Assembly (NCBI GenBank): GCA_041640075.1
Contig: JBEQAY010000016.1
Span: 1-22,984 of the forward strand
DNA length: 22,984 nucleotides
DNA from: Candidatus Nanohaloarchaea archaeon
GTDB taxonomy: Archaea; Nanohalarchaeota; Nanosalinia; Nanosalinales; Nanosalinaceae
Reading direction: 5' to 3'
Shown here one piece after another: positions 9,001-15,000 of the stretch (the first letter of the stretch is position 1; each line of letters begins with the position of its first letter). The position numbers were made by a program.

Positions 9001-12000
9001 CTGACTCCAGGCCGGGCGAGACCACGTGCTCGATGAACGGATACAGGTCCAGATGCATCCGGCCCTTCAGACGCGCTCCCGCAAACCTACCACGCCGGTT
9101 GAACTTCATTCTTTCTCCGTCACGGCCAAGCGAAAGCTCCAGATTATGTTTCTCAACACGCTCCCTCAGGACCTGGAAATCAAACTCATCAGTATTATAA
9201 CCTGATAGAATATCCAGATCCTCATCCTGTACGACCTCTATTATACTTTCCAGCAGCTCTTTCTCATCTTCAACAGTTTCAACAAAGTCCTCCTCGATCT
9301 CAACCGTCGAGATAACTTTCTCCATATCCTCCCCGAAAAACGACACCATGACTATCTCATCATCTATAACCTCAAGATCAAATGCCACAGAAGTGAAATC
9401 TACATCTTCAGCCTCAATACCAGTATTAACATCCTCTAACTCTATGCTGATATCAAAATCCTCAGATTCTTCTTCTCGTCCTTCCAGCTCTATGGTTTCT
9501 GTAGGTAGTATCTGATTGTCGATCAGGTATCGCTTGTAGAAAGGTATGTCAAACTCTCTGCAGCTTGAAACCTCTTCAAGCTCGTAAACTTGATGTTCAA
9601 GCTTTGGTACTGTTGCCGGGATCTCTGTGTAAACCTTGAGAGCTTTTACCTGCTTCATACCGTCTTTTTTCTCAACTATTTCGATCTGCGACGGTTCAAC
9701 AGGTTCCCCGTTATCGTCGTGGAACTCTTCAGTTTCTATAATTTCCTTCAGGTCCTCAACAGTTTCTCGTTCCTCCGGTATAGCGTAGAAATAAGGTTTG
9801 AAGTTTTTCTCCAATGCAAGCACATTTTCTCCTTCAGGAGTTTTTCCGAAGAGCCTCAGTTCTACTTCTTCCCCTTCATCTGTCTCGTAGGTTCTGTAGT
9901 CTATATCTATTATGCTTGCCTGGAGTTTCACAACTTGTTTTTCCAAGCCGAGAATTAAGTAAACGGAGGGACAGGTCCAATTATTAAGTTGAAGGCTCTG
10001 TCATTTAACCAGTATGAGAACACTTCTAGTGACTGATATCCATGGAGACCATGAAAAACTGGAAAAAATAATCGAAAGAGAGGAGTACGATGCCATCCTC
10101 TGTGCAGGCGATCTTGGAGACGCCAAAGAATACCCTGACTATACTGCAAACCTTGAAGACGTGCTGGAAAAGTTCAACCAGAAAGACAAGCTTGTCAAGG
10201 CGGTTCCAGGGAATATGGACCGCGAAGAAGACTGTATCAAGGCGCTGCGGCAGCACAGATTAAATCTTCATCAGAAAATTGCTTCCTTTGAAGGTTTTGA
10301 GGCTGTCGGTTATGGAGGAGGTATAACGCCGTTTGGAACTCCGTTTGAGCCTGCTGAAGAGGAAATCCGGAACGCTTTAGAAATTTTACAGGAAAGAATG
10401 ACATCTGACACAAAGGTAGGAGTAATCCATCAGCCGCCTAAGGATACTGAAGTCGATATCGCTGATGGCGATCACGTGGGAAGCCAGGAGGTCAGAGAGT
10501 TAATTGACGAATCCGATTTCGATCTTATCGTTACAGGTCATATCCATGAATCCAGAGGTCAGGATACGTTAGGTGAAACAGATATAGTGAACCCTGGTCC
10601 GGTGCTGGAAGGGTTCTATGCAGTTGCAGATATTGAAGACAGTATAGAAGTTGAACTCAAGCAACTCTAGAAGTATTGTTCATCATATAAGTTGTATTTG
10701 ACCAGTCACAACCTAGTTCAGTTACAGTTTTGAATCCAGTTTGAACTAGTGACTCAAGTAACTCCCGGAACATTTCCCACCTTTCTTTCACTTTTTTCTC
10801 TTGACTGTATACACGAAAACATGAATAACGTGTGCTGAAGAGCAAACGTTTTTATATAGGAAAGGAACATTAGTTATGTACAGAACCCTTCAAGGAGGTG
10901 ACAAATTCAATGGCAGAACTACCACTAGCACCAGTCAAGCGGATCATCAAGCAGGCCGGAGCAGCAAGAGTCTCAGAAGACGCAGTCGAAGAACTAAGAG
11001 ACGAACTAGAAGATCATGCTTCCGAGCGTGCACGCGACGCCAAACAGATGGCAGAACACGCAGGCCGCAAGACAGTGCAGGCAGACGACGTAAAGGCTTC
11101 CGCATAAAGTTGTGGAACCCCACTAAAATACTTCCTTTTTTATTTCTCACTTCTCTTGTCTAATACAGTGAAACTGGAAAACTCATTCATTCTGTTCCCA
11201 GGTATCGGGGAAAAAACAGAAAAGAAACTCTGGAAAGATAATATCACCCACTGGGATCATCTTGAGGACTCTTCAAAATACTCTGACAAGATACATGAAC
11301 ACAGGGAGAAAGCCAGGAAAAACCTAGAAGTCGGCAACGAGACCTTCTTCAAGGACAAGATGCCGAACAAAAGCCTCTGGCGAGGCTACGAAAACTTCAG
11401 AGAGAACGTTACATTCTTCGACATCGAAACTACCGGTCTGAAGCCGGAGAGGAACAAGACCACGACAGTAAGTTTCTATCGAAACGGAGAATCTAAGACT
11501 TTGATTAGAGGACAGGACCTGACGAAGGAAAAGCTTGAGCAGGAGTTTTTCGAGTCCTCTATGATGGTGAGCTTCAACGGCAAGAGATTTGACCAGCCTT
11601 TCCTGGAGAAAAGTTTTGACGTCGATATCCAGAACCCTCACATCGACCTGATGTATCTCTGCAAGAGACTTGGCTACTCGGGAGGGCTGAAGAAGATTGA
11701 GAAAGAACTTTCAATCGATCGTGAACTTGAGGATATCGATGGACGTGAAGCGATCCGTCTCTGGAAAAAGTATGAGAACAATGGTGACGAGGAAGCACTC
11801 CGGAAACTTGTGAAGTATAACCAGTACGACGCCGAGAACCTTCAGGACCTTCTTGAAATAGTTAGAGAGAAGCTGATAGACAAGGTCGCTCCTGAGCCCG
11901 AACGGTTCGAACGCAACACTTAAAAACGTCTCTACCCAAGTTCAGCTTGAAAGCAAAACATGGCCTTGCTTAATACGACTTCACCCTCCGGAAACATGTG

Positions 12001-15000
12001 GATGGATCTGGTGAGGTGCACCCATACCGAATACAAGGCCAACGACTTCTCCATTATCTACCTGGCAGCTTAAAGCGGGATGAAGTCTTGGCCCAAATTG
12101 GGTCAAGCACCGACCGCGAAAACTCCAAACCAACTGAAAACACAGTTCTTTCATTCTACCTCTATGGAACATGGAATGAAGGAACTTGGGCGGTGCGTCG
12201 CTTGCAAGGTGGCGTACCGTTCTCGGGCTTTTCAACTAAACCACGATTACAGACCAGGCGGAAAAACAAGGACCCCCAACCAAACAAGAGGTGTCAACCC
12301 AAAATGGACGCAAACGCGAAGCACTTTGAAACAGAGCTTTTGGCACGTGCAGAAGAAGCAGCCCGTAGAACAGCACAGTTAAGCCCAGAAGCAAACGTTG
12401 TCACAGCAACAGCACTTTAAACAAATATGATAGTGAGTGCAGCTTTCCAGAGTAGACCCAGCTATTCAATAATAATACAGGGAAAACTCAATCCTGGCTC
12501 TGGTACGCCGCTGACTCGAAAGCAGCCCAGCCATTAGCCATAGAATCCAGTATTGAAGTAAAGGATTTCGCTGGCTTGATAACTTTCCTGCGGCCCTGAG
12601 AGCCTTCCTTCGCATCACGATACTCAAGATACTCGTACTGAATAATACCAAGACGTCTCAACTTCGGTAAAATATTGTTCTTCAGATTTGATTTACCTTT
12701 CTCGTGACCCCATTCATCGAACGCGTTCAGTTTTGTCGAATCGATCTCTCCTTCATCCTTTAACTTTCTAAGGAAAATCTTGGCGTACTTGTTCCTCTTC
12801 GGAGACTGCTCATGAGGAAAGATCAGGTCAACTATCTTCTCCCAGTTCCAGGCTCTCTCACTTTTCTTGAACTTCTGCTCATCTTCAGGAATCGCGATAC
12901 TGTGCTTAGTTACTATTGTCGAGGTTTTCCTCGCGGTCTCATCGACAAAAGGGTGTTTATCTTCCGACATGGAAACATCTTAACAAAGAAGGTATAAAAA
13001 GAATTTCAGGTGAGTACGCTGAAAACTTTGCCCAGCGTACTTGTCAAACCTGCGTAAGCGAATATCCCTACTATCCAGGTCAATGCGAAAGCCATGAAAA
13101 CGAAGTAGTTTCCGGCTCCACTTGACGCGCTGAACTGGAGAAACGGAAGTGAAACAGTGATATCCATGGAGAGAAATCAGGAGATACTAGCTTATAAATT
13201 ATAACTCGCCGAGGTCTGGAGACCTGATTGGAAATATTTGAAAATTGACCTCAACCACCAACATATGAGCTACGAAGAACTCTCCCGCGAACAACTCATC
13301 GAAGCACTCAGAGAGATGGAGGAAAACTACGAAGAGGAAAGAGAGGAACGGGAAAGGTTCGAAAAACTCGCCAGGAAAACCAAAGCCGACTTCGAGAACT
13401 ACAAGAAGAAACAGGATGAAAGAAAGCAGCGCTGGCAGGATGAAGCCAAGCAAGAACTGGCAGAAGACCTGATCGAAGTCATGGACAACCTTGAAAGAGC
13501 ACTGATGGCAGCAGATGAGGAAACAGCAGTAGTACAAGGCGTGGAGATGGTCAACGATCAGCTCTACGATAAATTGAATCGTAAAGGACTTGAGATAATA
13601 GAAACGGAGGAAAAATTTGATCCAGAAGTACACAAAGCCGTTGATACCCGCAAACATGAAGAACACGAGCCAAAAACAATCCTGGAGGAGAAAAGAAAGG
13701 GTTACAGGTATGGGGAGAAAATTTTAAGGCCAGCAGAAGTGGTTGTGGCTGAAAAACCTAGAGAGGAACAAGATGAATCCTGAATACATAAGCAGTAGAC
13801 TGGAAGAGGAAACAGCCGAACTGGACGGGGAAGAACTCAGACATGAGGCTGAAGCGATCCTGGACGAAGAAGATATCGATTACTCGAAAATAGGTGTTTC
13901 AGGCCTCGAAAAACCTGAGCACAAACAGCACAGCTACGAACTTGAAGTCGGAGGAGAAACATACCGTCTGGAAGTGATCCTCGCAGACGGGCGACCAGGC
14001 CACGAAGACGGCTCCATAAAACTTGAAGAGAAAAATGAGCTAGCTTAAAAATTTCTAATCCTTGAAAACTAGGTTAAGCCAGGTCTCTTCACCGAATCGT
14101 GGCTCATCGAAAATTTTTATCCTGTACGGTCTGACAACGTAAAACTCTGAATCAATATACTCCATTTCTTCAGGTTCAGAGACTTGCTCTTTCAGGCCAG
14201 GAAACCTTTCTGTGTAAGTTTTGAAGGCTTGTGAAACTTTCTCTTCATCCTCCAGTTTTTCCGCTTCTCCGAAGACCTGTAGACCTCTTTTATCGTCGCT
14301 CCATTCCTGTCGAGAGTCATAGATGGAGAGCGAGATCGAGGAGTTCTCCTCAATGTTCTTTCCGTGATCCGTGTCCGGCTCGGTCAGAATGTAAAAATTG
14401 AATTCGCCGTCGAATGCGAAAAATGCTGTCGCATTGAAGGCCTTCGAGTTTTCCGAGACTGTGGCCAGCGCCAGAAGTTCGTTTCTGCGGCAGATTTCTT
14501 CCAAACTTGCCTTTGCTTCCTCAAATGAAAAATTTTCTGTTTCCAGCAGCTTCATTACAATGTAAATTCTAGAGCAAACTCCAAAAAATTTCTCTCCAGT
14601 TCTCTATTTTTCTATTCCTGAATAAGAGAGTGTATAAAATGATAATGTAAGCAATTTCTAGTTTGACTCCATATTCAGTATAAGCTCGATATCCTCATCT
14701 GCATCTTCATCAATTTTGGCAGCTTTTCTGGCAGATTGTTCCAAGTCTTTGAGCTCGCCCGTCATTATCTCAAAATCTTTTTCAAGCTCCTGAAGAGCCT
14801 GATGTATTTCCTGGATGTCCCCTAGAGCGTCTTTCAGAAACTGAAGTTCCTCTTTATCTACACTCTTGCCTCTAGCTATATCCCTTAAAACTCTGTCCAA
14901 TCTATTTTGATTCTCTAACTCATGTAGATCCTCATCCATTTGTTTATCAGCTTTCTCCGCAGTTTGAACCATTTCCTCCAACTTTGGTAACGCCTCCTGT

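Follow-up and report, generated by a model that had tools for sequence, protein, structure and literature searches.

The window (the whole stretch of 22,984 nt that was analysed) carries, between an exonuclease gene and a convergent gene for a winged-helix (wHTH) protein, a structured RNA and two small peptide genes, as follows:

11156-11923, + strand: RNase H-like exonuclease gene (PF13482), a syntenic neighbour found upstream in 42 of 44 loci
11919-11925, + strand: archaeal TATA box of the RNA, with a predicted transcription start at ~11946-11950
11947-12287, + strand: structured RNA of ~290-340 nt, with estimated ends, the 3' end falling between 12235 and the ORF2 Shine-Dalgarno site
11960-12073, + strand: ORF1, in the 5' half of the RNA, for a 37-aa peptide ending in ...KANDFSIIYLAA; its AUG is partly buried in P1
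11961-12041, + strand: helix P1 (11961-11968 with 12034-12041) around hairpin P2 (11980-12015), within ORF1
12075-12117, + strand: kink-turn hairpin P3, a predicted L7Ae site that begins 1 nt past the ORF1 stop
12145-12185, + strand: guide hairpin P4, with the guide at 12149-12172
12188-12222, + strand: terminal hairpin P5, mostly of 14-16 bp, with free stem sequence
12288-12293, + strand: Shine-Dalgarno site of ORF2 (GGTG/GAGG type), present in the 46 loci compared
12304-12420, + strand: ORF2, for a 38-aa acidic peptide (MDAN..F..EL...TATAL), in 46 of 46 loci (36-39 aa)
12488-12970, - strand: basic wHTH protein of 160 aa, convergent to the RNA, in 46 of 70 genomes

The RNA with its ORF1, ORF2, and the wHTH gene make up one module; the exonuclease gene is probably not part of the RNA. 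The conserved structured element (11957-12235) was detected by BLAST in 37 of the 70 genomes of the phylum and by a covariance model in 45, with one copy in each, and a pattern search added two copies truncated by contig ends (G044 and G045), so that the RNA is known from 47 genomes in total and is family-wide and single-copy. The sole second covariance-model match, in G030, lies on the opposite strand of the same locus (E 0.06). Pattern matches in G023:C4 and G037 proved spurious and were discarded, and the covariance model had no match in G004, G015, and G020, from which other hits (L160-L162) had come. The genome-wide survey's note had described a conserved, structured, strictly single-copy RNA without an Rfam family and in close linkage with the wHTH gene, and these descriptions hold: the folding z-score is -4.25 on the + strand versus -1.18 on the - strand, Rfam gave no match within the element up to E 10, and the wHTH gene adjoins the RNA in 45 of 46 loci and shares its phyletic pattern. 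The SRP RNA and the RNase P RNA lie elsewhere, as the note had stated, on C22 (above the cut-off) and on C9 (an RNase P-like RNA below the cut-off, E 8.8e-10), with no match to RF01857 or RF00373 at the locus of the RNA. A pattern search places a TATA-like hexamer 30-41 nt upstream of the ORF1 AUG in 32 of 39 loci, and TTATAA was recognized by eye in 5 more. Since the RNA has this TATA box of its own, which is kept where other DNA lies between it and g00661 (G025, G026, and G027), it is unlikely to be a 3'UTR of that gene.

In an alignment of 30 sequences, from which the structure itself was derived, 96.1% of the 895 cells in the 5' 170 nt are paired and 14 of the 30 pairs show double changes; none of 500 shuffles came up to these values, and slid controls were paired at 24-47%. 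Within P1 and P2, 95-96% of cells are paired, with double changes in 4 of the 9 pairs of P2 and in only 1 of the 8 pairs of P1. The kink-turn of P3, composed of a 4-bp C-stem, a 3-nt bulge, and tandem G.A/A.G pairs, is found in all 46 loci, and the genome encodes an L7Ae family protein, for which P3 is a putative binding site. The stem of P5 comprises 14-16 pairs in 33 of 45 loci, and in the alignment its apical part, GCU/GGU with a G.U pair, is conserved. The survey had regarded the loop GCUUGCAAGGUG as invariant and the hairpin as followed by a U-run; the loop is exact in only 16 of 46 loci, and TTTT occurs within 16 nt of the hairpin in only 11 of 45. A sigma-70/terminator scan found no terminator. 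The idea that the P5 loop mimics a tRNA-Cys anticodon (ARAGORN listed no tRNA-Cys) was dropped because the loop varies.

The RNA had been taken for noncoding, with no conserved reading frame, which has to be revised: of the 45 loci with enough sequence, all but G061 (44 loci) keep an intact frame of 35-43 codons from AUG to stop. Its stop codon is TAA in 31, TAG in 5, and TGA in 3 of 39 loci; the remaining two sense frames are open in 1 and 0 of 39, and on the minus strand the mirror frame is open in 17 of 39 and the others in 0-1. Synonymous and nonsynonymous single changes number 1157 and 915 in the 3' part of ORF1 versus 1550 and 4508 in the 5' part, and in these sequences selection at the amino acid level is limited to the last ~16 codons. 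ORF1 is thus classed as a conserved small ORF, with translation predicted from the frame, the synonymous stop changes, and the 3' codon bias. A reading of its end as a PIP box was dropped by eye, the spacing differing by 1-3 codons. Taken together, the conservation, the structure, and the frame of the RNA are very well supported by comparison.

ORF1 in this genome ends in ANDFSIIYLAA, which we take to resemble bacterial tmRNA tags, and the selected codons lie past helix P1, as if rescued ribosomes used the 3' part of ORF1 as a degradation tag. An archaeal tmRNA analog is nevertheless highly improbable, and this reading was rejected: there is no tRNA-like domain, ARAGORN found no tmRNA in the window or the genome, Rfam had no match, SmpB (PF01668) is without a match in this 89% complete genome, in 44 of 45 loci the tag frame starts with an in-frame AUG of its own, and most homologs end in LAE, not LAA.

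Downstream of the RNA, the 380-bp gap that had been thought to extend up to the wHTH gene ends instead at the conserved 38-codon ORF2. Variability in ORF2 peaks at the third codon position (0.57 versus 0.38 and 0.24), the start codon is ATG in 29 loci, ATC in 8, ATT in 5, and ATA in 3 (one being unclear), so that about one third are non-AUG, and paralogs place the peptide in a dispersed family.

The guide of P4 matches, in 24 of 24 positions, the transcript start and Shine-Dalgarno site of rpoE1 (G000:C6:28687-28710; E 1.5e-5), being antisense to about +1 to +21 of the rpoE1-spt4-rps24e-rps27ae operon transcript in this genome, and this is the top trans duplex genome-wide (score 26.5 versus 17.0 for the next). 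In a sister clade the target is gene X, a conserved 76-aa gene located beside aIF-2beta and unrelated to rpoE1, whose product has no Pfam, Atlas family, or fold match. The guide-leader duplex within the same genome exceeds the threshold, passed by 24 of 1500 windows of random background, in 40 of 46 genomes, 21 with rpoE1 (class A) and 19 with gene X (class B); G041 also passes weakly for the second leader (13.0 versus 21.5). The own site is the best or tied for 20 of the 21 rpoE1 guides and 15 of the 19 gene X guides, and the observed sums were reached by none of 20000 permutations, among genomes whose kinship makes them not independent. In a fixed 17-nt register, which omits three genomes with indels, at least two Watson-Crick pair types occur at 9 of 17 positions in class A (n=20) and at 12 of 17 in class B (n=17), with 588 Watson-Crick pairs, 36 G.U pairs, and 5 mismatches overall. 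The internal non-Watson-Crick pairs comprise 41 G.U versus 7 A.C when the scoring does not favour G.U, and this preponderance fixes the strand. The class-B guide of G007 has no match in the rpoE1 or gene X leader, G034, G035, and G039 yielded no gene X, and a 3-mismatch pattern search with the class-B guides of all four gave chance-level matches only. A second guide inside ORF1 was considered and rejected, as no trans duplex above 17.0 was found genome-wide in G000. On this comparative evidence, pairing between guide and target is almost certain.

The target site begins 27-31 nt after the start of the TATA box in 39 of 41 cases, and pairing drops to chance at -2 to -5, as expected for the 5' end of an RNA. 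The duplex covers the Shine-Dalgarno site, up to the AUG, in 15 of 41. Targeted gene copies have longer leaders than non-targeted copies, and the non-targeted orthologs have short ones. When the site was blocked in the folding of the 26 long leaders, for several of which the Shine-Dalgarno site or start had been misplaced, Shine-Dalgarno accessibility fell in 7 and rose in 8, so no common translational switch is apparent in them, and a switch that sequesters this site in long leaders is unsupported.

The RNA lacks an Rfam family, as had been reported, but the claim that it is new has to be qualified. A paper of 2023 (PMC10266531, Table 1 and Table S3) lists a 322-nt homolog from Ca. Nanohalococcus occultus, SVXNc_nc0001, under unknown family, describes its expression as very high, notes a further homolog in Nanohalovita, and suggests an H/ACA guide RNA. 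It is the only paper on this RNA that was found, in a search outside of which lie subscription papers and the supplements of preprints; the text passages and table rows of PMC10266531 that were available make no mention of the ORF, the kink-turn, the guide, the targets, or the family-wide distribution. Read by eye on the opposite strand, the printed sequence contains the AUG/P1 motif, the stop with the kink-turn, a class-B-type guide, and the terminal hairpin, and ends just before the ORF2 Shine-Dalgarno site. The same table prints the SRP RNA in apparently reverse orientation. In the published transcriptome, the RNA has an RPKM of 39,987, and the mRNA that gene order alone marks as probably that of gene X has one of 2,594, a ~15-fold difference. 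RNA-library contigs in L012, with ends and strand not resolvable, cover a homolog and span ORF1 and the guide. As a side observation, from which nothing is concluded, these contigs (one study, contigs only) are without flanking genes. Contig depth was 51 over the RNA and 3.5 over ORF2 in two runs, a measure unsuited to ranking genes.

We give roughly even odds (a probability of about 0.5) to the reading that this RNA is a dual-function antisense regulator that damps its target transcript. It would be transcribed from its own promoter and accumulate to a high level, as published for one homolog; its 5' half would be translated into the 37-aa peptide, with the C-terminal part under selection, and its 3' half, held by the L7Ae-binding kink-turn and the terminal hairpin, would offer a guide of ~20 nt for pairing with the opening ~20 nt of a single housekeeping transcript. 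The likeliest effect would be damping: in short leaders the duplex would cover the Shine-Dalgarno site, and in long ones it may unzip a leader hairpin and bare a pyrimidine-rich strand, leading perhaps to termination or decay. Access to the guide is probably controlled both by the hairpin in which it lies and by ribosomes that terminate 1 nt before the kink-turn, which would make the RNA a conditional growth brake. Here we infer the direction of regulation, the gating, the L7Ae binding, and the roles of the peptides and of the wHTH protein. Against damping, the probable gene X mRNA in the transcriptome data seen is still well expressed despite the ~15-fold excess of the RNA, and it would be unusual for a dedicated repressor to change between two targets that are unrelated.

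The arrow could also be reversed, a possibility that we consider less probable but worth attention: the 5' end of a constitutive housekeeping transcript would be a trigger sensed by the RNA, reporting ongoing transcription, and pairing would open P4 and alter RNA decay, factor release, or expression of ORF1 or ORF2. The switch between unrelated genes would then be explained, because any steady transcript would serve, and the site is always at the extreme 5' end without always including the Shine-Dalgarno site, the RNA is in excess without silencing its target, the ORF1 AUG lies within P1, and weak non-AUG starts are frequent in ORF2. However, with the guide blocked, the predicted accessibility of the ORF2 Shine-Dalgarno site or of the ORF1 AUG changed by >0.15 in only 2 of 34 genomes each, upward in one and downward in the other, so a switch acting on initiation of either ORF is unsupported, and no long hydrophobic stretch was seen by eye in either peptide.

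It seems improbable that the duplex instead protects the target by blocking a 5'-3' exonuclease, or activates it by unzipping the leader hairpin, the RNA being a needed helper of an essential gene. Pairing that begins at +1, long leaders that fold over the site, and an abundant target mRNA alongside the RNA would suit such a role; coverage of the Shine-Dalgarno site up to the AUG in 15 of 41 genomes and the sufficiency of short leaders in non-targeted orthologs argue against it.

The wHTH protein raises a further possibility. Its homologs are 68-92% identical, and its structure model (pLDDT 64.6) has TFE-alpha/TFIIE-alpha as top fold matches (Z 8.6 and 8.4, rmsd 5.7 and 7.8, 101-108 residues); Foldseek returned PadR-like matches (E >0.001). 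There is no Pfam match and no cysteine, and with neither PF02002, whose match lies on C21, nor a zinc ribbon, membership in the TFE-alpha family was rejected in favour of a fold resemblance. The RNA-protein partnership proposed in the survey could be extended to a ribonucleoprotein acting on transcription: the TFE-like winged helix would bind RNA polymerase or the DNA of the promoter, and the guide would catch the nascent 5' end of the chosen gene, or else its non-template strand. This would fit the basic charge of the protein, the phyletic pattern and adjacency that it shares with the RNA in Nanohaloarchaeota, and the start of the target site at +1. We nonetheless rate it as a long shot: neighbouring genes are gained and lost jointly, Z 8.6 is close to the level of a common fold and the model is weak, the bona fide TFE-alpha match is elsewhere in the genome, leader hairpins and G.U pairs suit RNA-RNA better than DNA pairing, and among 32 Micrarchaeota loci with distant wHTH homologs none has the RNA or one of the two peptides at a distance of up to 2.5 kb. 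A complex prediction for the wHTH dimer with ORF2 scored 0.00 and carries no weight either way. Somewhat less doubtful, in our estimate, is a broader RNA-guided control of transcription, in which the abundant kink-turn RNA, its reprogrammable guide for the first 20 nt of a chosen transcript, the TFE-like wHTH protein, and the two peptides would brake a gene at its nascent RNA, or be switched by it as an archaeal counterpart of 6S/7SK, coupling growth or dormancy of the DPANN symbiont to transcription state.

DPANN symbionts have ~1-Mb genomes in which little regulation is known. With damping of the target as the preferred reading, the RNA suggests how such cells might throttle the supply of RNA polymerase and ribosomal proteins, and a co-evolved guide in an abundant peptide-coding RNA points to an unrecognised control switch in reduced halophilic symbiotic archaea. 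A family-wide RNA whose target is named by covariation provides a directly testable RNA-mRNA pair in co-culturable symbionts, and the joint move of guide and matching leader between housekeeping genes is a rare visible case of RNA-target reprogramming. The published "unknown ncRNA" is re-annotated, and two unannotated conserved peptides are added.

The type I toxin mRNA of hok/sok is stable and structured, its start codon is buried, and the antitoxin RNA remodels it, as pRNA remodels 6S RNA; the RNA described here is likewise structured, its start codon is partly buried, and it could be remodelled by a ~20-nt complementary RNA. Apart from a possible antisense transcript of the locus, such as the antitoxin RNA of type I systems would be, the complementary partner found is the start of a housekeeping mRNA encoded elsewhere in the genome, and no transmembrane peptide is encoded; unlike 6S RNA, the RNA has no 6S-like rod. 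With regard to H/ACA guide RNAs, there is no Rfam match, and the guide forms one contiguous 17-25-nt duplex with an mRNA. The kink-turn resembles those of L7Ae-bound archaeal RNAs and box C/D sRNAs in its canonical geometry, C-box-like GAUGA, and D-box-like CYGA, but differs from those described in the parts of PMC5539422 seen in being internal and in closing an ordinary hairpin that follows immediately on a stop codon. On the 5' side of the D-like box, where a box C/D guide would lie, there is a self-paired hairpin, and the guide is located ~30 nt 3' of that box. The trans-acting archaeal sRNA162 of Methanosarcina mazei masks a ribosome-binding site and, according to the portion of PMC3510493 seen, pairs internally via a single-stranded linker, whereas the present RNA pairs at the 5' end of a transcript from a hairpin and encodes a peptide. 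Dual-function sRNAs offer a further parallel: a conserved small ORF (44 of 45 loci) and pairing with an mRNA in trans (a covarying duplex in 40 of 46 genomes) occur here, probably on one transcript, for which there is a single promoter and whose published 322-nt homolog spans both. The bacterial SgrS/SgrT and SR1/SR1P, as presented in the part of PMC12612679 seen, are ~200-300 nt long, with a 5' ORF of ~40 codons, a separate trans pairing region, and conservation of both functions, and the layout of SgrS, with a 5' ORF, a separate pairing region, and a 3' hairpin, is shared by the RNA, although no sequence relation to SgrS or SR1 is expected. In contrast to the short Hfq-aided seeds of these bacterial RNAs (PMC12612679, same part), the archaeal RNA forms a near-perfect 17-25 bp duplex exactly at +1, and it has a kink-turn, a second peptide gene, a wHTH neighbour, and a target leader that co-evolved with the guide and was swapped once.

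The stretch at 11957-12235, described in the genome-wide survey's note, is a real structured element: its plus strand folds with a z-score of -4.25 against shuffled sequences (minus strand, -1.18), its helices show covariation, and it is widely conserved. The window has archaeal gene content (PolB, histone, GrpE, and DnaK). BLAST detected the element in 37 of the 70 phylum genomes, and a covariance model of the 170 nt at its 5' end found a single copy in each of 45 (this genome, 43 of the 49 other family genomes, and 1 of the 20 outside the family), in addition to two copies cut off at contig ends. 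As that note had stated, an Rfam search with the element gives no match, and the SRP and RNase P RNAs are located elsewhere in this genome. (tRNA-Cys is not among the 39 tRNAs listed by ARAGORN for this genome, which is 89% complete.) The supposedly invariant terminal loop, however, is found in its exact form in only 16 of 46 loci, the U-run said to follow the terminal hairpin is found in 11 of 45, and the region does contain a conserved reading frame, ORF1, which had been thought absent.

11957-12235, plus strand: structured RNA element
11960-12073, plus strand: ORF1, 37 codons starting with AUG
12149-12172, plus strand: guide bases in hairpin P4
12304-12420, plus strand: ORF2, 38 codons
12488-12970, minus strand: gene for a winged-helix (wHTH) protein
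~12975-12995: AAAGAAG(G)TATA-type element ahead of the wHTH start
C6:28687-28710 (another contig of this genome): rpoE1 leader segment matching the guide
C50:432-620 (another contig of this genome): gene X, next to aIF-2beta, encoding a 70-80-aa acidic helical protein; homologs, L113-L142

ORF1 is intact in 44 of 45 loci (all 30 first loci, all 13 further full-length loci, and G023) and broken in G061, whose assembly (3 contigs, 79% complete) makes a sequencing indel possible, if unproven. Its length differs always by whole codons, whereas the length of the adjoining noncoding span, divided by three, leaves every possible remainder (20, 7, and 20 of 47). In the 39 loci that passed a motif filter, ORF1 ends in TAA (31), TAG (5), or TGA (3), and of the other two sense frames, one is open in a single locus and the other in none. 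The 5' part, whose RNA folds into helices P1 and P2, lacks codon bias, but the last 16 codons have it (1157 synonymous versus 915 nonsynonymous single changes). The whole-codon length changes, stop usage, and 3' codon bias argue for translation of ORF1 or, at the least, for maintenance of an open frame; it is very probably under selection, and the codon bias indicates that its C-terminal part matters as a peptide. The ORF1 end in this window, ANDFSIIYLAA, could be read as a tag of a tmRNA analog. This reading was rejected as highly improbable: most ORF1 homologs end in LAE, no tRNA-like domain was found, and this 89%-complete genome gave no SmpB match.

One base 3' of the ORF1 stop begins a kink-turn (P3) with a 4-bp stem, a 3-nt bulge, and tandem G.A pairs; all 46 loci retain this motif. 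L7Ae, whose gene is found in this genome, binds kink-turns of archaeal RNAs, including mRNAs (PMC5539422). An A-rich linker leads to hairpin P4, whose guide bases match, 24 of 24, a segment that lies downstream of the rpoE1 TATA box and upstream of the rpoE1 AUG and to which they are antisense. This is the sole outstanding trans duplex in this genome. The rpoE1 gene is the first of a run whose products were read as Rpo7 (by PF03876) and, by sequence appearance, Spt4, S24e, and S27ae.

Leaders of rpoE1 were fetched from 47 genomes, and a pattern search with the guides that did not fit them led to the leader of gene X, a conserved 76-aa acidic gene beside aIF-2beta that is present in 61 of the 70 genomes (50 leaders fetched). 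In the 46 genomes with a guide, the guide pairs with the rpoE1 leader of its own genome in 21 (class A) and with the gene X leader in 19 (class B) at a duplex score threshold of 12.5, which is passed by 24 of 1500 random windows. G049 misses it (12.0) because of one bulged base. The other five of the six misses are G034, G035, and G039, which have class B guides and assemblies in which gene X was not found; G045, which lacks both genes; and G007, the sole copy outside the family, whose guide matches neither of its leaders. Different Watson-Crick pairs occur in different genomes at 9 (class A) and 12 (class B) of 17 register positions, and the 629 in-register cells include 36 G.U pairs and 5 mismatches. 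Under neutral scoring, the excess of G.U (41) over A.C (7) indicates that pairing is between the plus-strand RNA and the target's sense strand. None of 20000 permutations reached the observed sums, a result that relatedness inflates; the pair-type changes inside genera are independent of relatedness. We put the probability of guide-target pairing, judged from these sequence comparisons, at about 95%.

In 39 of 41 cases, the distance from the TATA start to the site is 27-31 nt. Pairing falls to chance level at positions -2 to -5, although at -1 it is still seen in 16 of 21 class A and 3 of 19 class B genomes. These two observations argue that the guide's partner is the 5' end of the transcript. 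In 15 genomes, the Shine-Dalgarno (SD) site falls within the duplex; in the remaining 26, the paired site is part of a longer leader, which in most cases folds back upon itself. Many class B gene X leaders carry a decoy SD plus AUG, and sometimes a three-codon ORF, within the guide site. In G046, G044, and G045 (loci L027, L152, and L153), both the guide domain and the rpoE1 leader are expanded: two segments of the guide domain each pair with a different part of the leader, and P5 is preceded by an additional hairpin.

In a tree of wHTH plus Rpo7 (42 genomes), one branch (support, 0.86) splits classes A and B, except for the long-branched G061. Two class A genera carry decayed long gene X leaders, which suggests that gene X is the older of the two targets. 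The G007 module (L023, contig C114), the sole one outside the family, has a wHTH protein 83% identical to that of this genome and represents either a transfer or a misbinned contig, its own genome having no target.

Downstream of P5, an SD site and ORF2, with clear codon bias, are found in all 46 loci. In 16 of them, the ORF2 start codon (at 12304-12306 in this window) is AUC, AUU, or AUA and follows a good SD site, so that nanohaloarchaea may well initiate at codons other than AUG. Paralogs sharing its N-terminal motif are scattered in the 14 genomes examined; no other family member was seen in this genome.

L202-L215 (G035, G067, G028, G023, G026, G032, G040, G053, G062, G030, G047, G051, G020, and G048): ORF2 paralogs, 32-47 aa, motif M(D/N)(A/P)NxRxFExEL, most with an SD site

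Several of these follow another wHTH gene, near a phosphoribosyltransferase-like or receiver-domain gene. The linkage of the RNA to the wHTH gene, proposed earlier, is borne out: the convergent gene adjoins the RNA in 45 of 46 loci and has the same distribution. An RNA-guided wHTH complex nevertheless appears improbable. Distant wHTH homologs occur in other DPANN archaea, and no RNA or peptide was found near them in 32 Micrarchaeota loci. The Micrarchaeota homologs (L216-L247) are related to AF_0843 (PF27297; Atlas score, 0.91), and several adjoin genes that look like KaiC/RecA-like ATPases. The weak wHTH structure model (pLDDT, 64.6) is closest in fold to TFE-alpha (Z, 8.6), a lead only. The AAAGAAG(G)TATA-type element, which is repeated in both G044 and G045 (L152 and L153), is a possible wHTH promoter or operator. 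The gene X product has neither a Pfam family nor a fold match.

In PMC10266531, SVXNc_nc0001 is listed as a 322-nt RNA of unknown family with an RPKM of 39,987; probable gene X mRNA has 2,594 and rpoE1 has 4,585. The opposite strand of the SVXNc_nc0001 sequence carries, by eye, motifs of this RNA family; the RNA is already in print, there without a function. The literature searched contained no ORF1, kink-turn, guide, covarying targets, or target switch. Contigs from four RNA runs of one study, which reveal neither strand nor transcript ends, cover the L012 homolog and ORF2, and two bridge both.

Support is good for the pairing and for an open ORF1 under selection, but not for any one regulatory consequence of the pairing. 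On our analysis, there are roughly even odds that the guide would conditionally repress the target transcript. Against this, a folding test of long leaders revealed no SD switch shared among them, and the PMC10266531 data show expression of the target although the RNA is in excess. A trigger role, with the RNA sensing the transcript 5' end, would better explain why the position is fixed at +1 and why the target switched, but folding predicted that initiation at ORF1 and ORF2 would not be remodelled, and we consider this role rather unlikely. Protection or activation of the target by the duplex appears improbable. Conditional repression is favored because occluding the SD is hardly a way to activate a gene, and because this RNA is laid out like SgrS and SR1 (PMC12612679). 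The RNA fits no described family among those tested; it appears to work like a dual-function trans-antisense sRNA, and its sequence carries the two defining features of such RNAs that could be tested here.
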